A DNA stretch of 56,130 nt, filler included, from Sluysia triapertura (taxonomy: Eukaryota): NCBI GenBank assembly GCA_046118255.1. It is 4 parts of 4 records of this genome, joined end to end, with 100 filler letters (N's around TTAATTAATTAA, not from the genome) between each part and the next. Parts side by side here need not be neighbours in the genome. Positions count along the whole stretch, not along the records: positions 1 to 17,998 come from JBJNIA010183057.1; 3 more parts are not named here. One strand, given 5' to 3'. A model generated the notes under the pieces. That model was not told the DNA's origin. It saw nothing but the letters and a program-made list of their open reading frames with translations, and did not search any database. This document shows, piece by piece, positions 4,756-47,172 of the stretch. Each line of letters begins with the position of its first letter. Positions within the stretch are counted from its first letter, which is position 1. Made by a program: the position numbers and the translations under genes.

Positions 4756-5650
4756 CTAAATTGCAAAAAGCAGTATTTTATATTTTCTTGTTAATTATAT
4801 TAATAAACTATTCAAACAAATTTTAGGAAGTTATAGTTCTGAAAATCAAAAAATATCAAAGTACATTTAACCAGTATTAATTTGTTTTCAGTGTTTTATA
4901 TAACAGGTGACTCTAACCTTTCACAGCATTTAAAACCACGATATACAATGTATAAGTGCTTTCTGTGAAGAAAACTTTATCATTTCATCCATATGATTTC
5001 ATATGATCTCACATAAATAAGCAGAAAAACAATTATCAACTTTCGCATAACCTACCCATTTGAAAAGGATGTGATTATATATACTACTTTCTAACAACAA
5101 TCTAAAAAGTTGAAGAAACGTTGACCATGTGAAATGATGCGCAATCATTAACATTTTTTATAGCTATTTTAACTGTGTTGAATAATACTATAGATTATTC
5201 ATGTTGTTGTGTATAAATTATTTGTGCGTAAATTATATATAAAATTATTTGTGTATAGATTATATATATTTGTGTGTAAATTATATACGTTAAAGTCCAA
5301 ATTATAGATAATGTATGTGTATTTAAATTTCAAAAATCAATAAATTTCGAAGCTATATTTGTGTTTTTAGACATTAAAATAAATCAATAAAATTCAAGTG
5401 ATTATAAATTTGTTTAATTTAATATATTTGGAATCATCTAAATTTGGATTTATTTTGGATTTATTAAGTACGATATTATTTTTAATAAATTTTATTTTTA
5501 ATAATTTTAATTTTAATAATTACATTTTATTTTTTGTAAAGGAGTAATTATAATTGCTTTAAAAATTTATATTTGTTTTAATTGTTTTAATGATCACAAG
5601 GTCATTTATTTCTATATAAATAAGTAATGTTTTTTGCCAAAAACACGACA

Positions 5651-5752
5651 ACAATTCAATATCTTCGACTTTTAAAGTGACTTAATACGATTCAATATCT
5701 TCGATCTTTAAAGCGATTTACTACAATTCAATACCTTCGATTTTTAAAGCAA
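5651..5752. repeat. Three tandem 36-bp units (ATTCAATATCTTCGAxxTTTAAAG core)
   Basis: ATTCAAT starts at 5654, 5690 and 5726. Confidence 0.9.
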
Positions 5753-6129
5753 CAAGAGCTAGGATAAAACGTTTTCGAAAAAATATTTCAAGAATTCATC
5801 AACAACTTAAGTATCTTATCGTTAGTTTTTTATATGTAAGTCATTAGCTGTTTTTCATACTGCATTATTATAATATACTCAAAATTTTGTTTAATATTAA
5901 ACAGCTACCTTTTCATGATAGCTTATTAAAATAATATCTAAAACTTCTAACTTTACAGATTATTTATTACAATAATCTTCACTAAAATTTATACTTATTT
6001 ATTTTATTGTATATTTTCTATTTTTCGTTGTACATTTATACATTTTTAATAGAAGTTAATAACGAGTTATTTTAATATCATTTTTTAAAATTTATTTTAG
6101 CATTTTAGTCTAAAATCACATAAAGAAAA

Positions 6130-6416
6130 GGTTCAGCGTAAGAACCTAATTAAAATCTCTATAATCAATAAAGGTTCGTTTTAGGAGCCTTATTAAAATC
6201 ATTAAATTAAAGGTTCAGTTTAAGAACCAAATCAAATTCTTAACAGGTTCGAAGTAAGAATTTTATCAAAATACAATTAAAGTGAATTTGGTTAGAAAAT
6301 TTAATATTGGAGCAACTTTACTTAAAGTAGTATATTAATTAACACCTCCATTTACTTTAAATTGTTTGACAGAAAAATCCAACGGCTGGCCCTAACTGAT
6401 AAGCCCAGTACGTTGG
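6130..6416 (+). other. Array of four GGTTC-N7-GA(A/G)CC-type hairpins followed by a CCAACG/CGTTGG-CTGG/CCAG stem-loop
   Basis: Hairpins start at 6130, 6173, 6212 and 6246, each trailed by an AAAATC-like motif. The stem-loop spans 6379-6416. Confidence 0.75.
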
Positions 6417-6521
6417 TGAACTCACGTTAATCTTGATCTATTTATTCTGACACTCACACTTTTACATAACAATTGCACGAAAAAAATAACACTATCCTAT
6501 GATATACAGTATCATGAAATA

Positions 6522-7166
6522 ATGAACTTGCAAAAGGAATGGATTGTAAAGTCACATGAAAACAGTTCGGTTAATGATTTCAATTTTTATAAATTTTTGT
6601 CATGTTGGTGTCAATGTTTTCAGTCTAGAGAATCGAGACAAGTTAGTCCGTTCGTAAAATTAATGTCTACAGAATTAGAAAACCTTTTATGTATTTTTAT
6701 AATAAAACATACCAAAGATCCTTGTAAAGTGGTTCAAGATAAGAGCATACAATGTAAAAAATCAAATTTAGAAATATTTTTGTTTTCTTTAGTTTATAAA
6801 TTACTGTTAGAATTTTCAATTAATTTAGAAAGTTTCAATTATTCAGCTTTAATTATTATAGGGATAAATCCAACCGCAACTGAAGTAGAATTTTCTTTAC
6901 GTGTAACTTGCAAAGAATTTCTTCCAAAATTTTACCTTTTCAAACAGATGTCAAATATTAACTATGTTGCAAGAGTTGTTAATCCTGTGGTTATAGATAG
7001 ATATGCAATAAGTATGTTTCCAGAATATAAAAGTAATAAGAAAAATTTATGTCTTGTTATTCGAAATCATATGTCATTTCTATGTGTATCTAATCCTAAG
7101 ACTCTAAAGTCTAACCAAGATGTCGACCAAAAATTAAATGAAAAGTTGGAGTTGGACATGAAATAG
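6522..7166 (+). CDS. Orphan 214-aa accessory ORF of the LTR-type element
   Basis: Uninterrupted ORF. A decayed homologue lies at 50305-50554 (KTTLKLFLPQFFLLQ vs RVTCKEFLPKFYLFK) in the same motif context. Confidence 0.6.
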   Translation: MNLQKEWIVKSHENSSVNDFNFYKFLSCWCQCFQSRESRQVSPFVKLMSTELENLLCIFIIKHTKDPCKVVQDKSIQCKKSNLEIFLFSLVYKLLLEFSINLESFNYSALIIIGINPTATEVEFSLRVTCKEFLPKFYLFKQMSNINYVARVVNPVVIDRYAISMFPEYKSNKKNLCLVIRNHMSFLCVSNPKTLKSNQDVDQKLNEKLELDMK

Positions 7167-9187
7167 TATTTTCTAAAATGGTGACGATAAAATGGCGATT
7201 TTCATTGTATTGATGCTAGTTTATGTACTAGATATCATCCAATGAAAGTCGATGAAATGTTCTAGAATATTATAGAACATTCTAGAAGCTTCTATTCTAT
7301 TTTTAGAAGCTAATTTTCTTTTTTGGAAGCTAATTTTCTTTTTTGGAAAAATAATTTCTTTTGTGGAAAATAATTGTTTTCAAGTAATTTTAACGATTAA
7401 TAAATTGTTTTAAATTACTTCATATAATTTTGATTAATTTTTTGATGGTTTTAAATAGTTTAAATAATTTTAAAGTGTCATTATGACATTTTTGAATTAT
7501 TTTGTAGGATTGTGATGACAACCTAACATGTGGTTTCTTTAATTCAAATGAATGTTAAGAGCTCATTTGGATTTGCTGTTTTCTAATGCCTTTATTTCTT
7601 AAAGTTTTGACAATAAGTTCTTCCTATAAACCCTTTCCTTGTTTTTTGGTTTTATATAATAGTTTAGTTTAATACTTACCTAAGTGTTGTAAACTTTCAA
7701 AGATAAACGTGTCTTTATAGACAGTTATTTTGTGATTGTAGAAAATAAAATTGCGCATATTGGATATTTATACAATTGAATTAATAATATGATTATGATA
7801 ATAATAGTCAGTAATTCAATTTATATAATAGTATTAATTTACAATAATAGTCAGTAAATTTAGCAATGACAATACTATATAATAAACAGTAATAGTCAGT
7901 AATAATAAAATAATAAGCGGTAATACTAATTGTTTGTCTGGATAACTTATTTCTTTGTTATTAAATTTTGATTACATATAATTTATATTCATTCTTATTT
8001 TAAGATGGTTTTTGTCTATTATAATGCTTTTAATTTTAACATCACATTATTCTCTCTGTTTTGCCAAATCTTTAATTTAAGTTAATTTTGATCAAGAATA
8101 ATGTTACTAATTTCTAATTACATACAAGTTTTATCCAATCTCAATTTGAAATAATTTTAACTTACGTACGAAAATGATTTTTATTGGACTTTATGCTCTT
8201 AAAGTTTGATTTTGCATTTTCTTTATAGAATCTCAATTTAAAATGACTATTCATTTAATTTCAATTTAAAATCGGTTATTTCTGTTATTAAATTTCGAAT
8301 TTTTATTAACTCTATTAAATCTCATTCTGATATTAATATAAAGCAATTTTACTTTAATTTTTTGATAAATTTTAGATTAAATTGATTTTTATATCTGAAA
8401 AATTGAGAATTTAAAAAATTAATGAATATTATGTTACATTTTTATAAATGGATTTTTAATTGATTTCGACTAAAGTAATAGCATTCGAATATAAATAGAG
8501 TCAAAATTTTTAGAAAGACACAAAAAGAATTCGATAATTTTAATAAAACGAGATCATAATTCCTGCACACTCAGTTTAAATCTACAGATGTAGTCTGAAA
8601 TTTTATTTATAATTCATTTTATTAAGTAGTAAGTTTATTTTTCTTAAGATCTCTCTCGATTTCTCGGAGTTACAAAATCAACGCTAAAAGTTGGTCAACG
8701 AGCAGTTTCAAGATCTTGTCAAAATCTGATATATTAAGTGAATTAAGCCTTTTCGACTATTATTGTTTAATTATTATTATCATTGTTCATATATAAATTA
8801 GTATTTTTTATAATTTGATTAAATTGACCAGTTTGTAATTATTGTAATTATTGTAATTGTTAATTGTAATTATTAATTGTAATTATTGATTTTACTTAAT
8901 TTGATTGATTTAACATAGACGTAATCATTGATTTTTGCTTAATTTATCTTGTTATCAAGTTGTTAATTTATCTTGACTTAATTGTAATTAATTGTACTCA
9001 GTTAATTAACTTTAGTTGTAAAGTGAGTTATTTTTGAAGAATTAATTAAAGTAAGCAAACGGATTCTACAAGAATCGAAATTAATACGAAGACATAGATA
9101 TAGATAGATATAAGAAAGACCCTAATTTTTGAGCAGTTCAGCTACGTTGATTTTTCTATAAGCACGCCTCGATAAGTCGTGTCTACA

Positions 9188-12100
9188 GACGAACCCATTA
9201 TAGAAAAAAATTATTTTGCAAAACTCAAAAATATGTAAAGATTTTGGTGTTTATTGTATTAATAATTAATTTTATTTTATTCAATTTGTTTTTGAGTTTA
9301 ATTAAAACTTATTCTAAATATTTGAATCTGTACGCGTTTCTGTTCCTAAAAGTGGAAATGTCAATTTCCTAATTTTGGATATAATCATTGAATATAATTT
9401 TTCAATATCCAAATCAATAAAAGTTAAAATATAAGGACTTTCTTATCAGTTTATAATAATAAAAGACGTATTCTCATGTAATTTCTTTCGAGGAGGAATT
9501 TCCTTAATTCTTTATCAAAATTATTTTCTAATAATCTTTAACTAGAATTTTATCAATTATATTACACGCACAACAAACCAAATTTTAATTCAACTCACAA
9601 ACATTTAAACAGTTCGACACATAAAATCTTTAACATGATTTTAACATCTTTAACATGACACACAAAATAGCTACTTTCATACTTGGAAGTTTTTCTTGCT
9701 CCGTGGTGTCCATAAGGATGCAGTTAAAAATAGTATTTGGAATAATTTCGTCCAAATGGAATATTTCACATATTTTCTATTCCTTGGCACGATACACTTA
9801 TTCTTAATTCTGGGCATTGTTTTCCTTATTAGCAATTGAAGATTAAGGGATGACGGTTCTCCATTCGCAAGTCGTTGAGCCTGATTTCCGTTTAGTGTTC
9901 CTTTTTCCATTGCATCTAGGATCTTAGACTTTACCAGAAATTTTCATGATTTTTATAAAATTCAAATTTACTTTTTCATCTATATTTGTTAATCTAGACA
10001 GAGTCGACTCAATTATTCTACTTTCCTGGCTTATAGATAATTTCTAAATCAAATTCTGATAATTTGGTAAACCATCTATTTAACATGCTCATCTCATCTA
10101 TATGGTTATACAAATAAGTTAGCGGCTTATGGTTAGTATGCAAATAAATTTGTTGTTCTAGTAAATAATGTCTAAATAGTTTACTTGCATTCTCTTTCTA
10201 TCGTAGAATAATTTATTTATGCTTTATTTAATCTGCGGCTTACATTTGTTATGACTCCTAATTTATTATTCGGAAAAATTAATATAGTTGCAATTGTAAT
10301 TCTTTCTTTTTGATATGTAAATGTCTTAGATTGTTTATTCGTCCATTCAAATTCTACATCTTTCTTTGTTAATTTTTGTCGTAGTTGTGCGATTTTAGCG
10401 AAATCCTAAAAAGCTTTGAGCTTTCTTCACATTTTCTGGTTATGGAAATTTAACCACTTTTCTATGTTTCTTGGGTTTGGTTTAATATTATTTCTTGATA
10501 AAATATGTCCCAAAAATTCAACTTCTTCTTCTACCTTTTGTGGGCTTTATATTTAATTTAGTTGCCTCAATTCTCTTTAGAATATTATCACTATCTTTAG
10601 AAAAATATTATAACATTTTAATAAGACAAAATTCATGCGTCATTGAGAAGTTGCTGGTGCTCCGATTAAACCAAACAGCATTATTTCGCATTCGTACAAC
10701 TCATCTCCGCATGTAAATGCTTTTGTATGTTTATCTTTCTCTGAAATTTCGATTTTCCAATAACTGTTTCGTAAATCAAGTGTTGTGAAATATGTAGCAT
10801 TCCCTAATTTATGCAACATTTTATTAATTTTTGGCAACGGAAAACATCCTTTTCATTTTGTTTAATTCCCTAAAGTCTATGCAAAAACTCATAAAATCCC
10901 ATCATTTTTCTTAAATAATATTACTGATGACGAGAATTCAGAAAAACTAAATCTTATTACTCTAGCATTTTTCATCGTGTCTATCTTGCATTTCTTTTTG
11001 ATTACACATTGGAATTCTATATGGTTACTTGCGAATAACTTTATCTTCGGTTAATGGTATTTCATGTTTAATTATATTAAAATTACATATATTTCATTCT
11101 TGCAGTTACTTTCGGATATCGATGAATAATTGCTATTTTTCTTTCCTTGATAATTCTTCGTTGTAATTTAAATATTTCTATAATCCTTATCATTTATTTC
11201 TTTAGATTTATTTAAGATTGTATTATAAATTACAACTATTCATAATTTAATATCAGTTTGTCATTATTATTGTGATTATATGAGAATAGAATGTCAATTC
11301 TCATAATCATATCTTCTGGCAATATCGCATTACTTTTAATTTAACGTTAAATTCGCAATGAGCTTTCTTACACCAACAATATGTATCGCGTCCCCTGTAA
11401 CTCCTGCTAAATGAGATAAATGGTTTGTAAGTCTTTTCAATTCATCATCAGTAAGAAAAGTTTCGTTTATTAATGAAGCCACCGCTCCAGTTTCTATTAG
11501 TGCTGTTATTACTCTCCCGTTTATTCTTATAATTATAATTATTGTTAGCGCAGATCATAAATATTACGTTTTTGAGGTGGTGATGTCGGAGGGGCTGGCT
11601 ATAATCGTTCTTCCTTCTCATCCATTGTATTCTTAATTTGATTTGGTTGTCTAGTTTGTAATGCTATATTTTTGGTCTTCTGTCTTTCCGTCTTCAAAGC
11701 ACTTATTTTCGAATTTGCATGATTATGCAACAAATGTTTCGCTTTGAAATGGAAACAATCGATTATCAGTTTCCAAGTAAACCCTGAAATTTCATAAATT
11801 TCTACAACTGAGAACACTTGAGGTATTATCAATGCAATTATTATTATATAAATACCTATCAATCCCAAGAAACTATCGAGAAACTATCGATCAAGAAACT
11901 ATCCCAAATGTGTTTTAATATGTTTTGTGCTGCCTTTTTAAAATGATCTGGCTTCATAATAATTAAAAATTAATTGCTTCACCTTTCTTATTGTAATCTT
12001 ATCTACTATATCTTTTAACACCTTCACTTTCTTTGTAGGAAATAAGATTTCTTGTCATGCATCTTGTACATCTTCCTTCATATGAATACCTGAGTTTGGA

Positions 12101-14372: not shown

Positions 14373-15504
14373 AATTTTGCATATCTTTTTTCTAAACCTT
14401 ACAAAATGAATATGAATGGTTTGCTTCAGTCTACGGTTAAACTGGTAATTCAGTGACGTATTTCTAAGAATTTTTCAAGTATTAATTATTAATCTAGTCA
14501 TTTACCTATATCTTTATTATACTACAAATTTTAAACTAATAATCTTTTATTGGTTATTTGGTGGCTTCCTAAACTTTATAGTTATTCTTATTCTTGTAAT
14601 TATCTCGATTAACCTATTATTCAAGAGTTATTTCAAAAATTCCTTCAACCTTGATTTCTTTTATTATTATATTAAATAACAAAGTCTACTGTTCTTTATT
14701 CACAAAATAATAAAGTAGTGTTGTATAGTGCAAACAACAATAATAATAATTTGTAACAGTAGAAGACTCCTTTTTTGGACTTCTTTTGCTTTAAAATATT
14801 GAATTTAATAAGATTTTATTACTAGCTGAAGGTAGGATTGTGAGTAAGATTTTGATATTTCCGTTAAGCTTAAACTTAACAAAACTAAACTTACATAAAC
14901 GAATCGAAATAACTGGATCAAATAAATTCTCGAATGGATATACACCTATACCAAAATCACAACATATACATTTTAAGATTCCAATTACAAATTTTATTTT
15001 TTTATAGAATGTTGTGTTTTGCTCTTAGAATTTTTTAATTTTTATATATTTAATTTTTTCAGCTGCTTTTATTTAAGAATAATTCCAAATTATAAAATTT
15101 TATGGTATGGCAAATCGGAGCTTCGATTTCTTGAAGGATATTATCAGAGTACTGAAGACAGGAAGAAAAAACAAAATATTAAAATTATAAAATATTAAAT
15201 TATAAAATATTAAAATATTATAAAATAAAATATTAAATTATAAAGCTGTTGCAGCTGTTCTTAAATTATTAAATTTTGTTTTTTCTAACTTTATTACAAT
15301 TTAAAACATTTTCATTAATTTTATTATTTTTCTTTTAAATTAATTTAAATTAATAGTTTAATTATTTAAATTTTCTGATGGTGAATTTTGCAAATACCTT
15401 ACACAAGTGTATTTGCTTAAAATTAAAATTAAAAATTAAAAAATTTACTTTATTATATTTACCTTTATTCTTTTGGAAATTATATAAAGTACTGATAAAG
15501 TAAT

Positions 15505-16035
15505 AAAATGTAACCTCCTCACTGAGCGACATCAGATTATGCACAAAAACAAGTCGTTTGCACCGATCAATCGCTTTGAACCAGAGTGTGCTTGTGAAAG
15601 TATACGGATTTCGGACGAAGCAAGGTTTTCATTGCGACCGCCTTTGAATACACAAAATGATCGCATTTACCGAGAATTACGTGTAAAAACTGACATACCT
15701 GAGGAAGATCTGACATCTGTTCTTTGTTATGCTGCAGTTTCATGGTATGGCAAATCGGAGCTTCGATTTCTTGAAGGATATTATCAGAGTACTGAAGACA
15801 GGAAGAAAAAACAATAAACCAACAAGTTTATTGTGAAAGGATATTCCGCGATATGTGAAATGTAATGGACGACCAAATATGGACAGGGCGAATGATGGTT
15901 CCAGTGCTCATCAGCAAAGGCTTCAGTTTCTTCAGCAATCTACTTCTGATTTCATTCAACCGGAAGATTGGCCCTCCAAAAGTCCAGACTTAAATGTCAT
16001 GGATTACTGCGTTTGGAGCTTGTTATTGTCACAAG
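15505..16035 (+). mobile_element. Tc1/mariner (DD37D/maT-like) transposase pseudogene
   Basis: ISDEARF...LNTQNDRIY, CYAAVSWYGKSELRF, DGSSAH and WPSKSPDLNVMDYCVW, with frameshifts. Confidence 0.9.
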
Positions 16036-17721: not shown

Positions 17722-17866
17722 GACTTCATAAAATGGGCTGGCCGGGAATCGAACCCGGGACCTCCCGCTTCACAGACGAGCAGTTCGATGCCCGTCTAAC
17801 AATTTTATTTTATTATAGTCAATTATATTATCATTATTTATGGCACGTTAAGCCTTTACCCCAAGA
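17722..17866 (-). mobile_element. tRNA-containing mini-LTR, copy A (D-arm deleted, one end eroded)
   Basis: Homologous to 23792-23963 and 52136-52291. Box B GGTTCGATTCC is present. Confidence 0.8.
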
Positions 17867-17909
17867 ATTTTACATAATAATAATAAATTTAAATTATTGT
17901 TATCCTTTG

Positions 17910-17925
17910 GTTTATTATTATTATC

Positions 17926-17998
<73 letters not shown>
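17910..17998. repeat. (ATT)n microsatellite running into the gap
   Basis: Direct reading. Confidence 0.97.
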
Positions 17999-18399: not shown

Positions 18400-19298
18400 T
18401 TAACTTGTACGTAACATGATTTGACAGGATTTCTGTTTGGTCTTGGTTTTTGGTTGAGCATTCTCGGATCCGAACGGGAAGTTTAACACTAATTTTACTG
18501 GATTCTTAATTTCATACATCAGAATCATCTCTAATAAAGGCTAAATTGTTAAGTATATATGTCTTGTCGATATCGTGCATTAATGTTTCACATTATTTTA
18601 AGAGTGACTATGTCTTCACTATTATGTGACAAAGTCCAGACATTAAGTTTCCACTGTGTTGGAAAATTATTTTTAACTGAGATATCAAGAAGTTGTAAAT
18701 TATTAAACAGGATCTGATAATCCGTTTCAACATCATCATGACGTGTTGCTGGATGGAATTGCATTCGTTTAAACATCTTTTTATTTCCTTTACATAATTT
18801 ATTACATGATTTCAGTAGTATTTTGAGAACTCTTTGGATCTTTTCCTCTAATTTATAACACATCATTTGATCTACCTCCTCAATTACCAAATATCGTAAA
18901 GAATAAAAAAAATTTCTTTAATTTGATTTGTATGATAAAGGATCATTGAAATTCGAGCAGTGGACGCTACTAAAATGTGCACATCTAAAATCATATGTAT
19001 CTCTCCAGTTGTATCCTTTGTTCATCCTTATTAATCGGACATAATTTTGCATTACTAATTGAACAGTTGGAATAAAAATCATTATATAAATAAATGGTCG
19101 ATCTTTGACCAAACATTGTTGAATAAATGGAATACCGTAGCGAACAATCTTCTTACTTCCGGTTTTAGTTAAACTAATATCGTCTTTGAGCATCAATAAT
19201 AAAGGCATAGCATGTTGTTGTATATGAGCCGGTTTTGAATATTTCAATTTTGAAACATGATCTAAAATTGCAGATATTTTGGTTACAGTTGTTATCAT
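18400..19298 (-). pseudogene. Intronless decayed DEAD-box RNA helicase (cargo)
   Basis: Q-motif YSKPAHIQQHAMP, Walker A-like TKTGSKK, motif Ia IPTVQLVMQ, DEAD-like LVIEEVDQM and SAT-like FHPAT, all in the correct order, with frameshifts. Confidence 0.85.
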
Positions 19299-19529
19299 TT
19301 TCTTACCAAAGATAATTCTAATGTACCAAATATTTTTGAAAAATCAAAATTATTTATTTTTAAAATTTTCTGTTTTTTATTTAGTAACTTTTTGATTGAA
19401 TTGTGAGTTAGATAACCACATAGGCATGATTAATTAATTTTTGCTCTTAAATTTTTATTGGTTACTCACTACAATGCTATTATTCCTCATAAAATTCTTA
19501 TCATAATGTGATTAATGACAAACAATGTA

Positions 19530-20572
19530 GGATAGTCTGAAAATGATTGGACGTCCAATTAGGTATGAGAAAAATACAAAGCAGAAAGAAATCAATTGGA
19601 CACTCAATCAACCGAAATAATCGAGTTAGTAACTGTCACCAGTTATAGTGATTTATTTTAATGTAGTGTCACTAGTGACGAACGGTCTAAATAGACTAAC
19701 CTACAAAAAGTAATACAATGTTGCTGGTTAAAAGTATGGAATGACAATAATTAAATAGCAACACTATTAATAATAACATTAACAACAATAAAAATGGCTC
19801 AAATGACAATAATAATATAGAGACAAATCTTTTTAAAAAAATGGTCTAACATGATCTTTCTGTTATTTTAATTTTAGTTTTCTGAACATAAATAGGTTTC
19901 TTTTAATTTAATCTTTTTAACTAAAGTATTTTAAATACAATGTGTAAAAATAGCTTAAAAATGCTAAGTTAGAGTTTTCGGTGATATTCATTACTGGATG
20001 TTGAAAGTTTGTGAGTTTGTGATGTTTTGGTTTGATTTTAAGATTTATAATGTAATTCTGTAGTTATGAGATTGTGAATAAAATGTTTTAGTTAAAGTTT
20101 ATTGTACATTAGTGATTTTGAATGTAGAAGTGATTTTGATATTGTAACTTTATAAATAAGAAATGTTTGAGATGAACTTGAATTGTAGGTTAATAATGAA
20201 TGTAATTATGAATAAAATATTTTTAATGGCTTTTTAATGTATGTTGTAAATTCTGAAAGAGAATGTAATTTTAATATTATGATTTATGATATAGCGATGT
20301 TTTGAGGTTATTATACAGTTTTAGTGAAGGTAGAAAAAACTAAAATATAAAGAGTTTTGCTGTAGGAATGGTTAAAATGTTATAGAGTGTGATTTTATGC
20401 GTTAATTTTGCAGTGTTTTGGATTAACCTTTTTTAGTATTAAATGTGAATTTGATGTTATGCAATTGTATATTTCGAATATTTGGAAATATTTTGAATTA
20501 TGAAATGTTGTGAAAGGTGGTTTGTTTATTTTTTTCTTTATAAAATTCTGAGATATTGGGTTGGTCACTACA
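19530..20572 (-). mobile_element. 5' module of family Z (TGTAGTGACCAAC start, C/A-skewed tract, GTCAC and CCAAT inverted repeats)
   Basis: Collinear similarity to 53288-54300, e.g. TTCATCTCAAACA and CATTAAxAAxCCATTAA. Confidence 0.65.
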
Positions 20573-23345: not shown

Positions 23346-23791
23346 TGGTTTGTGTCAAGTCATAAATTTAAAGCTAAATCTAAATACTAAATCTGTAAAA
23401 AATAGTAGTAATAAATAATAAATCCGATAATGAAATTATAATATTTTTTTCACGATAATAATAAATTTCACTAATAAAAATAGTATTTCGATTTGCGGGC
23501 CATATAGCGTAACGCTCAATTTTATGTTTATAAAGAGTCAATAACAAATTACAGATAAGAATAAAAAATTTAAGGTGACAAAACTTACGAATTTAACTTG
23601 CGACACTTTACGTAGAAATGTCTTTTGGTCCCGGGGATTCCTGATCAATTTCAGTCAAGATAGCTGAAGTGATAACCGAATTATACTACATTGTTCGCAT
23701 CACGTCACTGTCAAGACTTTCACTTCAAATAGATAGTGTTTTGTTTTAAGTATTTATAAAATTTACGAATAATTTTAAAGTGGATAAGAAT

Positions 23792-23963
23792 TGTTGGACT
23801 TTAATAAATGGAATGACCAGAAATCGAATCCAGAACATCTCGCTTCTCAGCTATGCATTTCGATACTCTGACCACTGAGCTATCAGCCCGACTAACAATT
23901 TTGTTTCACTATAGTCAAATATACTCTCATTATTCTGTGGCACTTTGGGCCTGTATCCCAACA
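23792..23963 (-). mobile_element. tRNA-containing solo mini-LTR, copy B, 4-bp TSD GAAT
   Basis: GAAT-TGTTGGAC...CCCAACA-GAAT. Internal box A TAGCTCAGTGG and a decayed box B. Confidence 0.88.
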
Positions 23964-24128: not shown

Positions 24129-25000
24129 TTAAAATAAATCCGAAAGAACTTTGCCTTTTTTTAATATTTCATAATCTTTCATTAATTTAAGATTCTCTGT
24201 AATTTTTGAAACATAAGTGGTACATAACCTACAATCTAGCTTATTATCACTGTGGATTCTGCATAAATTATTATATCTTATTGATGCATTCATTTTGTTT
24301 TCAGAATTTTTTATTATTTCCAAGAGATATTCAGGACCTCCATAACATAACCAATGTAATTCTTTAAGATAAGGTGTTATACGTGATCTCCATCTTACTT
24401 GGAAAATTAGTTTTGTTGATTGATTCATTATTGATTGTAATCTTTGTATTTAATTTTATTTAGGATACTGGAGAAAATGTTTTAGAATGTTTAAGATTTT
24501 GTAAAACACTTGTTAATTCTAAACGAGGAAACATCTATTCAATATTCTTTTATAGAATGGGAATAAGAAATTTACTAAATAATATGGATCTATTTGTTAA
24601 ACAAGGTATTAATTCTGCAATGATTAACGACGACATTTATATGGTTAGTAGTGTAGATTAATTTTTTGTATTATTTCCATTTATATAGACTCATAATATT
24701 GTAACATATTTTTATCTTTTAAAAAATTAGAAGAGATAATTTATCCAAATTTAAAGCCCAAGAACTTATATTTGGAAATTATGCATGACATTAAATTTAT
24801 ATTATGATTCAAAATATAACACAATACCTCATGAAGATCCATATATATACAAACAAAAATCCGCCACCATTTGTTCATTAAATGTTCTTTAGTGTCACTT
24901 TTTTCAGAGTCTGCATCTGAATCTCTCTTTGTGTTTATCGGTAAGGTTTGTGTTTGGATCAAATACAAATGCTTAACAATGTTTTATTTTGCTGTTCTAT
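24129..25000 (-). mobile_element. L2/CR1-clade LINE relic (endonuclease remnant to ORF2 C-terminus)
   Basis: RITPYLKELHWL (L2 C-terminal HITPxLxxLHWL motif). NGGGFLFVYI APE motif near 24845-24872. Confidence 0.75.
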
Positions 25001-26472
25001 AAAGAATATTTTGTGAAATTCTTATGCAATTCAATTACTAATCCAATTGCGTGAGATCATCTTCTATACTCCACTTGCACTTATCACACTTAAGACTTTC
25101 CATTGCGTATTTCATAACTTTATTCGTATTCCTTGAATAAGCAACTAGAGGTACTTCAAAGTAACACACAAACTATTGACAAACTATTGATAAATACCCA
25201 ATTTTATGTAAGACCAAATCAAGAATATTTTGATCAAACAAAATCAAAATTCTAAATAAGAATATGTATTAGATGAATATATTTTTGAGAACTCAGTTAA
25301 AGTTTTGATGTCATGGAATGTTATTAGTTCAGATTGTAGAAATTTTAAATTGTAGAAATAAATAAAGCAAAATTTTTATCAACCAATTTCATGTTAGAGG
25401 TAAGTTCCTCTTTGTAAGGTGATACTAATTTTGATTAAAAAAATTAGTATCTTAAAATACACGTAAATTTCATTTTTTAATGAAAATTAAGTGTCCCAGA
25501 TATATTGAGGAGTAAAATACAGAGTAAACTAAATTATTAATAAAAAGTTAAAGGCTAAAAATAGCTATAACTGTAATATTAAAAAACGATTTTATCTTTT
25601 CTTTCATTTTTATTTTATAATTTGACGATTTTGTATATCATTGGATTTATAATTTTTATTTCATCGTTAATTGTATTAAGATAATTACTGTTTATAAAAA
25701 ATATTGTGTAATAAGCATCAAATTGATTAGCCGCTTTGAAGTTTTACGATTACGACTAAAGTATTTATTAACTTATTAAGTTACTGGAACGCCCGCTATA
25801 GGTTGTAAGACGCTTAGTGTAATCGGACACTTCTAAAAATACTTACCGTGTTAGAAAAACCACAACAAAATTATCAACATCATATAATAACTTGTTTGTT
25901 GTTTGTGACATGTAAAACCTTATTTCTCTTGACTAATTTTAGTGTAAACTTTTTCCATACACTTGTAAAGATGTAAAAATTTTAATTTTATTTTTTATGT
26001 TTTATGTATTTACAAAAGGTTGTAAAATTATAATATTATAAAAAGTATTATTTAAATTATATTAAGATTAAAATTATTATTCAATTATTTTAAGATATTA
26101 CAAAAAAGAAACAAACAAAATTGTTTATTTAAATTAAAATTTAAAAGGTCTTTATGTATATATAAAGACATACAAAAATAAAGAAGACACAATTAATCAC
26201 ACAAAGAAATCTGAACAAAATCTAAATTCGCCATTTTGGTTTCGCAAAGAAAACGAAGTCATCACGAACCATTTTGTCATCGATATTATCCGGCTCAACA
26301 ACATCAATTCATCTTCCAAGTTATAGTGTAAATCCCGCACATTCGATTAGAGGGATAGCACTCTCCAAATATCAGAAGCTCAAATCCATTAAGTCAAAAA
26401 CTTGAACAATATTTCTAGAGGCCAATTAACAATATTATTGATTAATTCGTAAGTTTGTTTCACATAGTTGTA

Positions 26473-26636
26473 AACTCACATTGAGTTAAAATCTAAACGT
26501 AAACTATTTTTTTTCACGGTTGGTCCTTAAGGCCAATCACAAAATCAATTTAAAATATAAATTCACTACTCTTTAGTTGGTCCTTAATGTGAATTATAAA
26601 ATCATTATTACAAGGTAGAGTCCAACGGCTAGACCT
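26473..26636 (+). other. Third copy of the hairpin+AAAATC array and TCCAACGGCTAG motif
   Basis: AACTCA-CAT-TGAGTT-AAAATC, then TTGGTC-CTTAA-GGCCAA..AAAATC, then TCCAACGGCTAG at 26621. Confidence 0.6.
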
Positions 26637-27700
26637 TTATTATAACTTAATTTTTATCATTGTAGTTTTATTATTCATAAACTTTGGTTATTAATAATTA
26701 TTTTTGGATTTTTATAAATTAACATTATTTTATTCTAATTTTCATTTGGTTACATAATAAAATTTGAATTTTGTTATATATTAGTGTTTCTTTTATAATT
26801 TTAATCATGAATCATTAACATCATTTTAACTTATTTCAGCAATCAATTTTTTTTAAAACTATTATAAGTCTTATTCTGATTATAGTGTAAGTTTGCTAAT
26901 TTCTTAGAACACCACAAAAAAGGCTAACGATTAGTATAATTAGATTTTACTTTTAAAAGAGTAAAGAATAAGAGAATAATACACTTGTTAACTTTGTTCA
27001 CATAAACTTAATTATCATGCATGCCAGTGTTGGTCACAATTGTTTTTTTAGGTTATTCAGCAACAAACGATTTTGCCCAGTACTGTTAAGACAATGAGTA
27101 TTTTTATACAGACTAATTCTTAATAATTGTTTTCACGTAATTTTTACAGGTACGCCATTAGTAAGTCATACACTGTAAACGAACTCAGAATGGTAAATTA
27201 TTTTGCTGCAAGTTAGATTCTTTTATTAAGAAAAAACCCAGCACTAATAATTACATATTTCAATACGACTAAAATTATAATAATAATATCTATAGTTCAT
27301 GACAATTATATACAATGATTATGTTAGTTTTTTGAATGAGTCAAGTAATTTGTTTAATGTTCTATGTATAAGATGTTTTTGTGTGATGAATTTTATATAA
27401 TTTCCCTACAATAAAACATTATTCTTTGTAAAAACAGAAATACAAATAATAAATATGAATCATATTTATTTTCAATGAAATACGTTAAAAATACAAAAAA
27501 AATAATAAATTAATTTGATCGTAATATGCTTTTTTCGTTACCAAACAAAAAAAATAAAAACATGATCAATATAGAACTGAAATTGTTAAAGGAATTCGTA
27601 TCTTTCTTTCGTTTTCATAAAACACGGTGGTTCGACAGTTTATCTTTCTTTGATACATCAAAAATAATCCATAATTAAAAATTAAATCATTGAATTAGTA

Positions 27701-29473
27701 TCACTTTTCATTTACTGATTCCAAATTGATATCATCGTTTCGATGAATGAAAATCTTGGTGAAAATGATTTTCGAAGTAAACACTTCAAACCATTCAACA
27801 ATCAAATTAGTCAAATTATCAAAAAAGGTATTGAAATTACACATTTCAGAATTTGAATTGTATTGGCAATTGAAGTTGGGTAGATAACGTTTTAATAAAC
27901 GATTTTGTATAACAATGTACAATTCATTGAGAAATTTAATTTGTTTAATTATCAAATATCGATTTAAACTTAAGGTACAATTGCAAAATGATAATTGAAT
28001 AATACTGCTTTTATTTAATGTTACTTTAGTGTTCAATAAATAATTTGAAATTATTTCAAAAGAATAATTATGACTATCATCACTTTCACTCGATACTAAA
28101 TGATTTTTTAGACATGGCATTGTGAAATGTGTATTTTCGTAATTGAAACTAATGCTTTTACAAATTAATCCACATTTAAATATGATATTTCGTCTTGACA
28201 AATAATAATATAAATATTTTGGATAATCTTGAAATACAGAATTATGTAAATAATTTATAAGTTTTTCTAAATTATCTGTATTGCTAACAAATATAGTTTC
28301 ATATTCGACTTCACAAATATAGGCTTGATTTAAAAATTGATTATCAATAACGATAGCAACGATTTCGTTATGACATTTCATTGACTGTGTCTGTTCGATT
28401 TTAACAATCATATTTTGTTTATTAAAACATTGACTTGATATTGTATCCATTTGATAAAATAAATTCGAATATGACGAACTAAAATAAGAAATGGCTTCTT
28501 CGATAAATAAATCCGTTTTATGATTTAAATTAATTTGTGAATAAAATGAAATCGAAATTGAATAATTTTCAAACTTAAAATTGTGTAACAAATTTAAGTA
28601 TCTATTACTGAAATTTAATATCTCACAATGTTCGTATAATTTCAAATCTATTTGAATGTTTACAATATTTTTACAATCATTAAAAAATGAATTAAAACAA
28701 AAAATTTCATTAATATATAAATTGCTTTTATAATATAAATTAATTTTGTAAATTGAAATTGAAATTGAATATTGTTTAATATCAGAAAAAGATAAAATAT
28801 CTAATTCAACATTTTTGTAACTGATCATTTTAAATTGATGAAATAAATTCAATTTATTTTCAATTTTTTCTCTGTGATAAAATTTATTAAAATAAGACAA
28901 ACTTACGAAAAAAACATTTTCTTGATTAAATAAATCTATTTTGTTATAAAACTGTTCATTGAAAACAATGGGAATTAAAATTAAATTATTATTTGATTCT
29001 GTAACGTATGAAAAATTTCTGGCAATTTTTGAAAATTTTATAATTTCACAATTATCATAAAATTTAAATTTCACTATTTGATTTAAATTATTTACATATA
29101 AATTAGAAGATATGCCAGCTTCTTTGACATGTAAATCAATTTTGTAATAAAAACTGTGAAATACCACTGAAATTGAATTATCTTCAAAATTATCATCGTA
29201 TTCTAAATTTAATATTAACTTTGGACAACTAAATATTTCACAATGTTGAAATAGTTTCAGCTTGGTTTGCAATTTTGCCGACATTAACAAAAAAGAATTT
29301 GCTAGATCCATTTTTGATAAATCTAACTTGCCTAATTTTAATAATTTGTTTTCTAAGCGTTGTATTTTTGTTTTAATAAATGGATCATTAGCAATTTTTG
29401 ACATTCGTTTTAACTGGAAAAATATTTCTTTGGTTGATTGTTTAATTGATTTATAATATTTCATTTGAGCCAT
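27701..29473 (-). CDS. Intronless 590-aa orphan protein with four ~65-aa internal repeats
   Basis: 1.77-kb open frame in very AT-rich DNA, with an AAAATGG start context. Repeats start KLFQHCEIF / KFYDNCEII / NLFHQFKMI / KLYEHCEIL, each followed by a KIDL/KSNL/KTDL motif. Confidence 0.7.
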   Translation of the reverse strand: MAQMKYYKSIKQSTKEIFFQLKRMSKIANDPFIKTKIQRLENKLLKLGKLDLSKMDLANSFLLMSAKLQTKLKLFQHCEIFSCPKLILNLEYDDNFEDNSISVVFHSFYYKIDLHVKEAGISSNLYVNNLNQIVKFKFYDNCEIIKFSKIARNFSYVTESNNNLILIPIVFNEQFYNKIDLFNQENVFFVSLSYFNKFYHREKIENKLNLFHQFKMISYKNVELDILSFSDIKQYSISISIYKINLYYKSNLYINEIFCFNSFFNDCKNIVNIQIDLKLYEHCEILNFSNRYLNLLHNFKFENYSISISFYSQINLNHKTDLFIEEAISYFSSSYSNLFYQMDTISSQCFNKQNMIVKIEQTQSMKCHNEIVAIVIDNQFLNQAYICEVEYETIFVSNTDNLEKLINYLHNSVFQDYPKYLYYYLSRRNIIFKCGLICKSISFNYENTHFTMPCLKNHLVSSESDDSHNYSFEIISNYLLNTKVTLNKSSIIQLSFCNCTLSLNRYLIIKQIKFLNELYIVIQNRLLKRYLPNFNCQYNSNSEMCNFNTFFDNLTNLIVEWFEVFTSKIIFTKIFIHRNDDINLESVNEK

Positions 29474-29739
29474 TTTTTGGATTGTACTTATTGTTATGAT
29501 TAACTTTTTTGTAATATTTTACATTGATTTTTAATTAAAAATGTATTTTATAGTAAAATATTTTATTTTTGTGATAAAGAGTTATCAAATTTTGTTTATT
29601 TGATATTCAAAAGTTTGGAATTGGCTTTTGATTTTAAATTATTAATCATAACTTTAGATGATATGAAACATTTATTTTTAATTATCTGAAAATTATTCCA
29701 ATTCAAACTACGCGTATAAATTTTGTTTTAGAACAATAT

Positions 29740-30849: not shown

Positions 30850-33034
30850 GTAATTTTTGAAAGTATTTTCATAAAAATATAAATAAAAAGCAAAAAGAAA
30901 AATAACTTGATTTGTTTAATCACTTTCTGAATTGCACATTATTTTAAAAATATAATTTTTTTCAATCAGTTCAATCAGTTCATATTTAATCTTGTTCGTT
31001 GTGATAAAACAAACATACAAAGAATTAAATATCATCAAGACATGTTTAATTGCTTATAAGTTAACAAATTTTTCATAAAACGATTCTTCATTATAATACA
31101 AAATTTATGCTTTATTTATTTAGAATTTTAATCAATTTAAAATGTTAAAAATCAATGATTGAAATAGCTCAAAAAGTTTTTAAAGATTCGATCAATATTT
31201 CATTATCTATGAAACACGTGGTTACCTATATGCTTTTCTTTTGTTGTATAAATAATTGATATATTATAATTTTAATACTAAAATTGTTTTGCAATTATTT
31301 AATAATTGTTTTTAAAAATTCATATCTAAGGTAAGATCAATAAGTATATGTTTTAAGTATTAATAAAAAGGTTTGTTTTAAAATAAGTCAATTTGTTTTA
31401 AGATGCAGAATGTCAAAAAGAATTAAAAATTAAAAAGTAATTCACATCTATATAATTTAAACTTGAAATTAATTTATGCGTAAGATGTACTTAGTTTATG
31501 AAGTATATGTATATATTTTAACTGAATTATGCGAATAAGACATTATTTAATTTTCTAAAAGATCTCTAAAATGTTCGAGGAAGACATTATAGATTTGTTT
31601 TATATTCGAAACGTTAGAAAGGATAATAAATCTTTACAGTGAATATAATTAACTGTTACCTTTCACAAACCATTATAAAGCAATTCATTTTCTGAAAAAA
31701 TAAGGTCGACGATTAATTAAAAACTAAGTCAGAAAAATGATTGAAAAAAATCAGAAAGAGTTGTCATAAATTAGAAAATTAACTTTGCGCAAATTTGATC
31801 TCGTGGTGAAATCAAAATAGTTGTACAAAATATGATTAATAAATGGATCAAACAAAATTATTGACTAAATTATCACTTGAGTCCTTTGTCTAGTAATTGA
31901 TAATTTTCTTTGTTAAAAGATTTTAAAAATTTCTAATCATTAATTTACGGTGCAATTGTATATACGAAGTAGCAGCCAATCAAAAGCACATCGAATTCTA
32001 GAATTTTCTAGAAAATTCTTTTATTTTCGTTTTTTGAAAATAATTTCCTTTTCCCGAAAATTAACTTTAATCATATATTATATTTTTTTAAAGATTTCAA
32101 ATGACTGTGATCAAACAAAATAAAGCAATTACGTGGTGTCACAATTTTCACTAAAAATCAATTTCAAATTTTAAACCATGTTTGCAATTATTTTATAAAT
32201 TTCCGCTACACTTACATCTACATCATTTATAACATATTCGTGATATCTTTTGTTGTAAGAGTCATATTTTTATATAATGGTGTCAGTAAAAACTTAAAAT
32301 TAAATGTAATATCAAACATAATCTTACTTTTGATTTCAATAATACTTAAGTTATATCACAACTATAATCATTGGTTGTATTTGCATCATTTATTATCAAA
32401 TGTACATGCACATCACTTGGTATATAATTTAGAATATTTGATTATTTAAAATGATGTGAAATAAATGGTCTACATTAGAATTTATAAATAAAACTTTATT
32501 TTAAGTCAATGTGATTATTAAATAAAAAGGATTAAAGTAATATTTTGTTATTTTCTTCAATTAACAAAAGATTTTAATAGTTAACTTCTTTAATAGATAA
32601 ACAGATTTGTTAAACTAAAACAATCCGTTTTTTTCGAAACAATGATGATTAATCCGGAAAATTAACTATTAAAATCTTTTGTTAAACTTTTTTGTAGTTA
32701 CTTAAATTTTATTTATATTTAAGAAGAATGATTCTACATTTATGTAAGAAAAGTTTAAAAAGAAAATTAAGACTAATTCTTATTGATCGGGTTTGACATA
32801 TACCATTTTATATTTTGTCTTAACTGGAATCATGATATATCCTAATTTATTCTCGTAATTTTGAATTATTCATTTCTTTTGATAATTTGCGACTGTGGCA
32901 TGTCATACAAAATTCACAGTCTCGCAACTATTTATATTGGCTAGTAAAATATTTATTTATTTTGATTATTATTATTATTTTTATTGCAACTACTATTATC
33001 TCTTATAATTAGAAATAATTTATTTTTAATGTAG

Positions 33035-39279: not shown

Positions 39280-40534
39280 TGTAACTACATGAGCTAATAA
39301 TTTAACATAACTTTAATAATTTACCGATGCAACTTATTGAGTTATCTACTAAATGCTAACTTTTATAACTTGATTTATTCTACGTATTTCCTTAATTCTT
39401 CCTTAATATTTTAACCTTTCTGAACAAAACATTAATTACACAAATGTATTCAAAGTTTTTACAAAATTATTGTTGATATAAGGATCAAAACCTTAAATAA
39501 ATAAGACGTGCGAAGAATTTTCTGAACTTATAACGCAAAATATAACGCGAGTCCACTTAATAGATACGGCTTATATCTGACCGAAGGCGGTCTATTAGGA
39601 TTTTCAATATGCTTAGAAAGCTGAACTTATTAAGTAAGAACGTTATCTTACACCTAGTGAATACGTCGTACCACTAAATTAAACTAGCCGACTTATAGTC
39701 TAGTTGTGTAATCAATTAAGCTAGCCTGATATGGTCTAGCGTATCTAATAAAAGATTTTTATATATTTCAGACGTTAAACTAGCCTTAGTAAGGTCTAAC
39801 GAATCTTTTAACTGATTTTAAATACAAATATAATAACACCTTGTACACTCAAAGATTTATTCAACAAACGTACAAACAAATCTTTATTATGAATATAACA
39901 AAAGCTTGATATAGAATTATAATATGGATAATGATTTTATTTGATTACTTAGTAAATCTTAGTAAATCTTTAATGATTTTTAAAAATAAATGAAGCAAGC
40001 CTATTTATGGTCTTGCAAGTTTATTACGAAATTTAAGTGATAATTTAAACTTTCCTATATAAAAGGTAAAGTCAAAATTGCTATATAAAACGAATTACTT
40101 GTTGCACGAAATAATCTGAATAAAGTCTTTGTCTCAATATTTTTGTCCCAAAAATTGAGTTCCAAAATTTATATTCCAAAAATTTTGTTCCAACAATTGT
40201 ATCCCAAAATTTGTGTAATTGTTTATTAAAGATTTTATTATTATTAAATTTTCGCCTAAATGAATGAAGGAGATGATGACAAAAATATAGGATGCTAATC
40301 GAATTTGAACTAAATTACCAAAACCAAAACGTTGAGATAGCTACTAAAAAATGGTCACTACTATTGAACTGATGCCAGTTTATATACTAGACATCATCTA
40401 ATAAGAATCTATGGAATGTTCTAGAATGTTATTCTATTTTTAGAAAATAAGTTTTCGTTTTTAGAAAAGTAATTTCTTTTTTTGGAAAATAAGATTTTTA
40501 AATGATTTTAGAGGGTTGTGATGGCAACTTAATA
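39280..40534 (+). mobile_element. Probable ~1.25-kb LTR (TGTAA...TAA(C/T)A) with structured motifs
   Basis: Preceded by AAAAAGGG. Internal motifs are shared with 51100-51620 and 44790-44830. The end is shared with 7180-7528. Confidence 0.5.
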
Positions 40535-40787
40535 AAATTGATAATTAAAATTTTTTACCTTAGCCTACCTAAACGAATAGATAGTGTATCTGCTATAGTA
40601 TTACTTATTCTGCCTACTGATTCTTTAAACTATATTTTCATTTTAGCAATGATAAACATGACATATATAAAAGAATAAATAAAATATATAAAGCAATGTA
40701 AAATTTATCATTAAAATGTGCCTTTAAATAGATTTGTTTTGAATTAAAATAGAAGAAGCTTTAAACAATAATTTTAAATAATTTCAG

Positions 40788-44205: not shown

Positions 44206-45135
44206 ATATATAATAATTTTTATTTATAATAAAAATAAATTTTCTTTATTCAGTAAGCTCCGACTATTTTTAAAAGTCAAGCATAATATAATTTAACCTT
44301 TAAACAGAATATCAAATAAAAGAAATTGATAATTATACTACTACTGTTATTACAGTTGATTCTAACTTCCTTTTTTATATTTAATATACCTCGAGCGATG
44401 AAAACTTAATTGGTATAATCGGTTTTTAGAACTCAAATTTTATTAGCATTATTTGCATCAATTTAAGTATATATTTTGCAATATTTATTAATAAAAGTTT
44501 GGTCAGTATAATTATTTTTTTCCTAGAGTAAAATTGCCATAACGTCATTGAATATTTGTAATTTTAAAAACGTATGATCCTTTCAGATCAGTAAATTTAT
44601 ATATTTTCAAAATCCAGTGTAGTTGTAAAATCCACTATTACATAGTATAATAATTATCAACAAATATTAACATGACTCTCAAAAATTTCTGATCCTGTTT
44701 AAATAGGTTCATATGTAATAGGGGATTTTAATTGCAATATATATCGACTTTATTCGGAGTAGTAAATTCTAAATTGGCCTCCATTCGTTCTTTATGCTGA
44801 CACTTACGAATTGGCCCTTAATTGAGTAAGTCCAATATCGTAAGGAACTCACATAAATCAGCAAAACCAAAAAGGAAGATCCCAACATAATAAACCATTA
44901 TTAATGTTTTATAAACGACGTCTATAATGATAATTTTATTACATTTAACTTTTATTCATTATTCGATGCATTCATTACTTGTGCTGATGTTTATTTTATA
45001 AATCATATCAATTTGAACATATCGAGCATTTTGTCTCATCATATCCCTTTCAAATCCCTAATAATAGTATAATAATAATAAATATTTATAATTATTAATA
45101 ATATCATAAGAATATATATATATATATATATATAA

Positions 45136-45235
45136 GGTACAGGCCTAAAGTGCCATAGAATAATGATAGGATAATTGAGTATAATAAAATTGTTAGACGG
45201 GGTTAGGGAATCGAGCTACACAGTTACGAAGCAAG
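45136..45235 (+). mobile_element. tRNA-containing mini-LTR, copy C (truncated, beside a (TA)n run)
   Basis: GGTACAGGCCTAAAGTGCCATAGAATAATGA...AAAATTGTTAGACGGGG is shared with the other copies. Confidence 0.75.
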
Positions 45236-46714: not shown

Positions 46715-47003
46715 CTGAAATATAAAAATAGTATTAATGTATCTGTATATCGATATTAGGAACATTTGAAGCTATCTCATTATAATGCGCGACAGAAAAA
46801 TTAATCGACTTGAAGAATGACCAATGGAAAGGAAAAAATAGTTCGAAATTTGATATATACAAATAAGCATAACTTAAAAAAGAGAATATGATCAAATAAA
46901 TGATAATATTTTGTTGCAGTTAAAATCGAGTCTAAATTTAATCAAAGTATAATAAACAAATAATTTGAAGCAATATAATAATCATTAAATTAAACTTACG
47001 CAC

Positions 47004-47172
47004 CTAACCAAGCAAAATACAGAGCTATTTTCTCACCATAATATTCTCTAATATTATCCAATGGTTGATATTTGAATATGTTGGACCATTTAGCCCAATA
47101 ATAATAAAGAATTTGACGTCTATTGTATTTACTAAGGTCTTCAGACATACTTGACGGTACTTTGTGTGGTCC
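47004..47172 (-). CDS. Anoctamin/TMEM16 exon
   Basis: RQILYYYWAKWSNIFKYQPLDNIREYYGEKIALYFAWLG is the anoctamin signature. It splices in phase to 46714. Confidence 0.95.

Follow-up and report, generated by a model that had tools for sequence, protein, structure and literature searches.

We analysed a 56,130-nucleotide (nt) stretch of DNA from Sluysia triapertura (GenBank assembly GCA_046118255.1), hereafter the window, and find that it carries a real, structure-conserved and very abundant repeat signal with variable cargo. The module around this signal is built of a left arm, an array of short hairpins, a long hairpin, a tail and then downstream DNA that varies between copies. The reading we prefer, though with somewhat less than even confidence, is that the module forms the front of a non-autonomous mobile cassette that swaps its cargo, in which the long hairpin would be a cis signal for copying, most likely on RNA. 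All evidence comes from the DNA sequence of the window and from summed contig depth in one DNA run. The window has a GC content of ~25% and consists of four joined pieces, with N-linkers at 17999, 30750 and 44030. Its DNA is eukaryotic and animal-like: one exon matches TRAPPC8 (Pfam E=5e-5) and another anoctamin (E=2.9e-8).

In the first copy of the module (copy 1), the long hairpin is about 50 nt long, with its stem at 6378-6416 and its tail running to 6425. The sequence-only reading that preceded this analysis had described a TCCAACGG stem here; the stem is present but was understated, being the start of a 12-base-pair (bp) bulged hairpin with a tail. The sequence TCCAACGGCTRG occurs at 6378, 26621 and 50208, exact in all three places. 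Comparing copy 1 with the full hairpin at 44799, we find that 6 of the 12 pairs differ on both sides. A model built on these two full copies (copy 1 and 44799-44855) returned 18 matches up to E=5, including a third full hairpin at 27139-27191 (E=1.8e-4) and the one in the second module copy, copy 2 (E=0.018). Across the three full copies, both sides have changed in 9 of the 12 pairs, and pairing is kept in 34 of 36 cells (94%, compared with 22-44% for slid partners), in an alignment of three rows that was fitted to the model. The covariation is stronger than had been claimed, but it is located in the long hairpin and not in the array. It shows a single-stranded fold; neither RNA nor the strand follows from it. 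A signature of loop plus tail, defined by sequence alone, was found at five places against 0.9 expected (maximum 4), four of them reading GTAAGT.

The window holds six clear or partial copies of the long hairpin, counting the half copies at 26621 and 51116, and three weak ones at 26434-26482 (+), 39604-39544 (-) and 51248-51190 (-), which were called from E values of ~2 or from homology to such a match. The tails of the long hairpins read GAACTCAC or GAACTCAG. The weak hairpin at 39.6 kb has an array of its own ahead of it, made up of three short hairpins whose arms differ. This locus belongs to a homologous pair, 39450-40149 and 51085-51752 (score 211; shuffle maximum 67), that shares CTAG-type hairpins and a minus-strand long hairpin; the minus-strand hairpin at 51.1-51.25 kb faces a plus-strand hairpin relic. 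Elsewhere, up to three long-hairpin relics stand in tandem within 760 bp (26434-26640 and 27139-27191). The loop and tail hexamers (6399-6425, 44826-44852 and 27161-27188) could pair on the minus strand or be inverted DNA half-sites, and no compensation was seen between them. Searching Rfam 15 at gathering score, we obtained two tRNA-like hits elsewhere in the window only, the best score within 5500-7600 being E=0.48 and lying outside the hairpins. The hairpin pattern had no match in public viral contigs, and we found no description of this hairpin family in the literature on planarians and flatworms, supplements aside. A single metagenome match was put down to chance, as it lay in GC-rich, bacterial-type coding DNA and had no tail.

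Summed contig depth, which is not copy number, was about 17 over the single-copy flanks, about 200 over the spacer behind the array (6295-6330), 3.8k-13k over the short units, 1.5k-4.4k over the open reading frame (ORF) that follows, and 357k-628k over the long hairpin (6379-6426). The long hairpin thus reaches thousands of times the single-copy level and is ~100 times deeper than the ORF, and the ORF 8-20 times deeper than the non-coding spacer. This order indicates that the long hairpin is common to far more loci than the array or the ORF. Directly beside the hairpin the depth is 1.6-1.9k, and loose ends lie at 6373-6375 and 6425-6434. Since the DNA is multicopy on either side, the hairpin is internal in the copy-1 subfamily and is not its terminus. 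We had considered the tail as a primer-binding site (PBS) and the hairpin as the end of a long terminal repeat (LTR), and dropped both, there being no depth step at this place. Multicopy DNA extends from ~5300 to ~8600, between single-copy contigs, and no convincing terminal inverted repeats or LTR-like direct repeats were found around copy 1.

Over the whole span between palindrome and long hairpin, copies 1 and 2 match in the same order (5566-6411 and 49613-50241). Their array-to-hairpin alignment scored 88.4 against a shuffle maximum of 42.3, and the copy-2 tile came first among 528-532 tiles for queries 5900-6110 and the array. These alignments, well above shuffles, bear out the proposal that the same module is present twice. 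A partial third copy (copy 3), proposed at 26473-26636, stood in part: related units and the 5′ arm of the hairpin are there, but the units are of a GGTTGG..GGCCAATC type, only 20 nt (the 5′ arm) of the long hairpin remain, and neither palindrome nor TATA rises above background. The TGACCT/AGGTCA palindrome with a TATA box, proposed as the start of the module, is divided between copies. Copy 1 has a palindrome of the form TGATCACAAGGTCA and a clean TATA, TATATAAA, at 5613-5620; in copy 2 the palindrome, TGACCT-N3-AGGTCA, is perfect, but the TATA position reads only TATTTAAG, so that no copy has both clean. The homology of 5591-5620 to 49637-49651 was ranked first of 532 tiles, by a small margin. 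Upstream in copy 1, the T-run and purine run at ~5528-5543 may be similar to a polypurine tract.

The short hairpins were found where they had been placed, two to four spaced units with loops ending in TAA or TAG and a trailing AAAATC. Copy 1 has units at 6130, 6173, 6212 and 6246 (spacing 43/39/34) and copy 2 at 50029 and 50073 (spacing 44); TTA also occurs among the loop ends, and the trailing word is AAAATC-like. Exact GGTTC-N7/8-GAACC was matched three times, with 0.02 expected. Anchoring on loop ending and AAAATC, we find strong stems at 5 of 10 anchors against 0.15 expected, the anchor being derived from the same units. Either strand of the array can fold (z -3.33 and -2.73). All six units keep the left arm, GGTTC, unchanged, and variation is confined to the right arm. 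Among seven short units (the row at 29760, off register, was left out), Watson-Crick pairing accounts for 29 of 35 core pairs, and the six that remain are all plus-strand G-U (p=0.03), a count biased by the units having been found through their left arm. The sequence-only reading took such substitutions, and CTGG/CCAG for CTAG/CTAG, as keeping the pairing. The latter is a true double change, but the plus-strand G-U argument is weak: in addition to the left-arm selection, 4 of the 5 possible right-arm transitions yield plus-strand G-U by composition alone, and the GAGCC change is private to this copy, since at 6187 the entire summed depth (7133.8 of 7133.8) reads A. The GGTTGG..CCAATC type of unit recurs as a mirror-image pair at 54224-54305 and, in copy 3, holds a CCAAT box (GGCCAATCA). 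A hammerhead descriptor gave seven loose matches in the scan, none of them within a module. There may also be resemblances to Y RNA and to the sites of Myb and nuclear receptors.

Past the long hairpin the three copies are unrelated, with alignment scores of 28 and 34 at shuffle level. The 214-amino-acid (aa) ORF behind copy 1 agrees with the proposed order of hairpins and "then an ORF", but nothing of the kind follows copies 2 and 3, where no plus-strand stop-free frame longer than 54 codons occurs within 1.2 kb; tblastn found no second copy of the ORF in the window. A fixed third ORF of a retroelement, as had been suggested, is not supported, the cargo being different in every copy. The ORF at 6522-7166 is real coding-type DNA and multicopy: it lies in a 248-codon stop-free frame (shuffle maximum 117), and GC drops from the first to the third codon position. 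No homologs were found at near or longer lengths, and a 1950-aa repetitive match from a search of 1.84 billion representatives was discarded as spurious (60 residues in 8 stretches). There was no match in PDB, PHROGs or NCBIfam, no usable hit in the Atlas, and only DUF7132 in Pfam, at E=0.03 and below the cut-off. The AlphaFold check that had been suggested gave no usable fold, the single-sequence model having a predicted local distance difference test score (pLDDT) of 34.5. The statement that the ORF is not env-like held, with no Pfam env family matched and no transmembrane segment (highest 19-residue hydropathy 1.43). No parent host gene was found in protein collections, which may lack the host's own proteins.

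On the reading that we prefer, the long hairpin, present on single-stranded RNA, would be the cis signal that a helper retroelement needs for copying. Transcription would begin either around palindrome and TATA or immediately upstream of the long hairpin, and one protein would bind the array, as RNA or as DNA, at several sites. Judged by the established splice consensus, a donor-like GTAAGT in the loop and a branch-like ACTCAC in the tail may let splicing cut the hairpin, in which case the unspliced RNA would be the copied form and the spliced RNA the cargo mRNA. The first AG lies 99 nt past 6409, a gap that is seen at 3.4% of window positions, and the stretch could end a 5′-untranslated-region (UTR) intron (Table 1). 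The fold is kept across families with differing flanks, arrays and cargoes, and would thus be needed by each spreading copy; that every such copy has to preserve it would account for its conservation in subfamilies whose flanks are unrelated, while cargo would be exchanged behind the tail by template switching or recombination. Other cassettes in the window similarly combine a palindrome module with an orphan or borrowed ORF, one with a DEAD-box fragment and one with an Unkempt-like finger.

Several observations weigh against this proposal. Neither element ends nor a target-site duplication, a PBS or a helper were identified. The loop of copy 1 reads ATAAG, not GTAAG, and the depth data list no variant there; loop and tail are also near reverse complements, which places donor-like and branch-like words on both strands. 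The depth values are summed over contigs of one DNA run, probably of the source sample, and so are not independent. All eight listed differences between this copy of the ORF and the others are non-synonymous; none is a stop, and they are compatible with neutral drift of this copy inside a frame-keeping family. Covariation fits single-stranded DNA equally well, and DNA folding gave z values of -3.5 to -3.7 for 3 of 4 strands tested. Shuffle z scores for RNA were split, copy 1 having -1.54 on the plus and -2.13 on the minus strand and the 44799 copy -2.78 on the plus and -2.36 on the minus strand. The earlier call of a plus-strand RNA is unsupported, as the opposite strand has the lower RNA energy in 7 of 8 long-hairpin copies and composition alone favours plus-strand G-U.

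A bolder version of the proposal, which we regard as doubtful, would make these cassettes an undescribed gene-capturing class with a large share of the genome. Here a single splice-site-bearing hairpin, its shape preserved while promoters, arrays and cargoes differ from subfamily to subfamily, would mark unspliced RNA for copying by the helper, and splicing would free the cargo mRNA. The loops of the array would be recognised by an RNA-binding protein that the element itself encodes, for instance the Unkempt-like finger of neighbouring cassettes. Unkempt binds UAG and a U/A-rich motif, according to the part of the report available (PMC4358403).

The alternative that survives best, at a low but appreciable probability, makes the module a part of a Gypsy element: either an accessory region that has an internal promoter and lies between pol and 3′ LTR, or the U3/R of a long LTR. 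Copies that stand alone would then be solo LTRs or derivatives with deletions. The window contains two decayed remnants of Gypsy pol, one on the minus strand at ~9.7-13.9 kb (RVT_1 E=4.3e-9; Ty3 reverse transcriptase E=1.4e-16) and one on the plus strand at ~47.3-48.6 kb (Integrase_H2C2 E=6.7e-7); they are 72.5% identical over 244 nt (minus-strand match at 9931-10170). As the sequence-only reading had stated, copy 2 comes right after the integrase, on the same strand. A consistent linkage to pol is not supported, pol being directly upstream in one of six clear copies (copy 2), and for eight copies in 56 kb the chance of one same-strand neighbour within 1-1.7 kb of either pol end is 14-23%. The nearest recognisable pol to copy 1 is downstream on the opposite strand, and ahead of copy 3 Pfam gave no hit in 24400-26400. 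The DNA upstream of copy 1 weakly matches that of copy 2 at a proportional distance, 4864-5150 aligning to 49072-49218 with a score of 67.8 against a shuffle maximum of 64.7 (p ~0.01). This match was ranked second of 530 tiles, however, an unrelated tile outscoring it, and the putative integrase remnant is single-copy while the module is multicopy. The stretch has possible motifs of an integrase C-terminus, which Pfam, PDB and BLASTP do not confirm.

The hairpins at 44799 and 51116 bracket the plus-strand Gypsy remnant together with copy 2, and the second starts just after a purine run. They share 44548-44859 and 50842-51168 (133; shuffle maximum 73) and might be an old LTR pair. Outside the hairpin this pair is weak, the arm at 44540-44775 ranking its partner third of 534 and the DNA on either side being unmatched. 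An anoctamin exon at 46996-47172 (-) is found just upstream of the recognisable plus-strand pol remnant; with it in that place, the DNA from the 44799 hairpin to the pol remnant is not one continuous element, or the exon was captured. Precedents for a Gypsy accessory region are known from Retand, which according to the excerpt available has orphan ORFs and tandem repeat arrays between pol and the 3′ LTR, and from the giant planarian Burro elements, for which the part available reports accessory ORFs (PMC11963269, PMC6431247). The same excerpts mark the differences. Retand ORFs are antisense and 97% of their clusters have one domain (TRP28), whereas here the ORF is unshared and the pol linkage inconsistent (PMC11963269); the Burro extras are in or upstream of one huge polyprotein, and hairpin-led cargo is not described in that part (PMC6431247). 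On the sequence evidence a Gypsy link of the module is possible, but an ORF common to the copies, as such an accessory region would suggest, is lacking.

Rather improbable, in our view, is that the long hairpin serves as a single-stranded-DNA signal of a rolling-circle, Helitron-like element, whose read-through would capture cargo and whose short units would be extra stem-loops or transposase sites. The strong DNA folds, the sharp-edged core in families with other flanks, and a shared body on one side with variable DNA on the other all suit it, as do heat-shock-element arrays in a neighbouring repeat, since the literature, as far as available, mentions Helitrons with heat-shock elements. HINE/DINE-1 non-autonomous Helentrons (HLE2) are comparable in very high copy number, a stem-loop, short shared signals and diverging insides, on the accounts available in part (PMC4067079, PMC11417382). 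Here, however, we found no paired sub-terminal repeats, T-flanked ends or terminal position, in contrast to those accounts (PMC4067079, PMC11417382). No partner sub-terminal repeat of either arm turned up, whether anywhere in the window with as many as 2 mismatches allowed or close to the copies with as many as 3, and for the paired 11-17-nt sub-terminal inverted repeats of HLE2/HINE no partner was found for either arm or the tail. The right end of HLE1, described in the available part as a hairpin with a terminal CTRR (PMC11417382), was not found either; no CTRR follows the hairpin, the tails being GAACTCAC/GAACTCAG. There was no Rep or helicase among the 17 long frames scanned, and the stem of 12 bp plus a bulge is longer than the 5-10-bp end palindromes given for HINE in the portion available (PMC4067079).

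We give little credence to a further account, compatible with the one we prefer, in which array and palindromes are double-stranded-DNA sites for transcription factors, transcription starts just ahead of the long hairpin, and only the long hairpin folds. Its support lies in the fixed left arm of the units, with the right arm alone varying, and in the CCAAT and heat-shock elements of neighbouring modules; the mirror-image unit pair and the CCAAT box leave room for it in the case of the arrays. The pairing of the short units speaks for folding instead (p=0.03 before the biases noted above), the spacer length varies between units, and the covariation of the long hairpin would go unexplained.

The sequence-only reading itself suggested a Rev/RRE (Rev response element)-, Tat/TAR (trans-activation response element)- or coat-operator-like system. 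We consider it very improbable that the 214-aa protein forms such a loop by binding the hairpins of its own module. Rev/Tat-type proteins have an arginine-rich RNA-binding motif. The ORF has none, with 6 Arg in 214 aa and at most one in its most basic 15-residue windows; it stands behind one copy only, has no family, structure or homolog, and is far shallower in depth than the hairpin. The iterated hairpins with similar loops upstream of it speak in favour. A Rev-like export protein does exist in this class, CERV of the C. elegans Gypsy/Ty3 element Cer1, but in the part of that report available it is made from spliced element mRNA and conserved across Caenorhabditis, to which nothing here is comparable (PMC10309623). 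If true, this reading would be the second case after Cer1 CERV, not the first.

Table 1. Features of the module copies and of adjoining DNA in the window.
Feature	Position	Strand	Remarks
Possible remnant of a decayed Gypsy integrase C-terminus, upstream of copy 1 (weak)	4864-5150	+	single-copy depth
AT-rich left part of the cassette, with T-run and purine run at ~5528-5543	5300-5590	+	depth climbs from 17 to 145-400
Imperfect AGGTCA palindrome and TATATAAA, candidate promoter	5591-5620	+	homologous to 49637-49651
Three 36-bp tandem repeats	5651-5758	+	not aligned in copy 2
Short hairpins of the GGTTC-N7-GAACC type (four), trailed by an AAAATC-like word	6130-6272	+	
Covarying long hairpin with a 12-bp stem, an A bulge at 6410, the loop RTAAG(T) and the tail GAACTCAC	6374-6425	+	
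AG-free stretch ending TACAG 12 nt before ATG; candidate 5′-UTR intron end	6426-6509	+	splicing proposed
Orphan 214-aa ORF, cargo of the copy-1 subfamily only	6522-7166	+	depth 1.5k-4.4k
Separate very-high-copy repeat, CCAAT box and heat-shock-element array	7182-7529	+	begins 16 nt past the ORF stop codon
Copy 3: two GGTTGG-type units and long-hairpin 5′ arm	26518-26640	+	
Further full long hairpin, other arm sequence	27139-27191	+	E=1.8e-4, from a model built without this hairpin
Probable diverged module (weak), with a tailed long hairpin behind three short ones of CTAG type	39544-39810	-	model E=2; homologous to 51085-51752
Further full long hairpin, other arm sequence, upstream of Gypsy remnant	44799-44855	+	
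Gypsy integrase remnant ahead of copy 2	48241-48580	+	Pfam Integrase_H2C2 E=6.7e-7 at 48241-48370
Copy 2: perfect palindrome, two short units, long hairpin without outer 3′ arm	49613-50248	+	
5′ arm of long hairpin, 44799 type (arm at 51116)	51078-51168	+	

Other repeats share the window with the module. The heat-shock-element repeat behind the ORF has sharp depth edges at 7189 and 7528 and, read on the minus strand, the form TG...CA. Further copies lie at 29900-29740 (-), 31950-32130 (+) and 40333-40535 (+); perfect heat-shock-element arrays number six matches in three of the four copies, with 0.67 expected. The repeat precedes orphan ORFs at 29473 (-) and 32111 (+). An intronless orphan ORF of 590 aa with internal repeats occupies 27701-29518 (-) and was placed in no family by Pfam and PHROG searches. 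At 54224-55400 (+), the mirror-image pair of GGTTGG..CCAAT units is followed by a broken ORF ending in the Unkempt-like CCCH finger, whose Pfam match is weak (E=0.0017, below the cut-off) and serves as a lead only. A palindrome cluster at 18588-19720 (-) precedes the broken DEAD-box helicase fragment (Pfam DEAD E=5e-4). Four diverged units of ~57 nt at 7950-8340, starting with TGTTA or TGCTC and having very high depth, are a possible right-hand module of the cassette. A tRNA-derived dispersed repeat occurs at 17722-17949, 23790-23955, 45059-45201 and 52145-52293. Lastly, a 77-bp direct repeat (99% identical) at 15098-15174 and 15738-15814 stands beside a frame that may resemble a fragment of a Tc1/mariner-type transposase; Pfam gave no hit for it.

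Among known systems, the cassette is comparable in its working to cargo capture mediated by LTRs and to GalEa Copia elements' Conserved Hairpin Site (CHS), yet it lacks the defining features of the CHS, and those of an LTR-mediated retrocopy were not found in it. LTR-mediated chimeric retrocopies, in the part of the report by Tan et al. (2016) available, likewise join a retroelement-derived front to foreign coding DNA, with cargo varying by locus (PMC5131818); here, unlike there, no flanking LTR pair and no parent gene were found, and one hairpin is common to very many copies. The CHS of these fungal elements is a 33-62-bp hairpin region with a fixed mismatch that is conserved from family to family within one species and believed necessary for transposition, as the available excerpt has it (PMC5445492). 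In that excerpt the CHS has conserved arms and a variable loop and comes right after the 5′ LTR, whereas in our case it is loop and tail that are conserved, with covarying arms, and an LTR end was not seen (PMC5445492).

Should the hairpin be only a part of a Gypsy LTR or a Helitron end, the result would be a well-marked new repeat family and little more. If the hairpin is a copying signal, it would serve as a simple marker by which to detect and sort the members of a very abundant family that apparently mass-produces orphan and chimeric genes in an animal genome, and would allow a direct test of cargo pick-up by non-autonomous elements.

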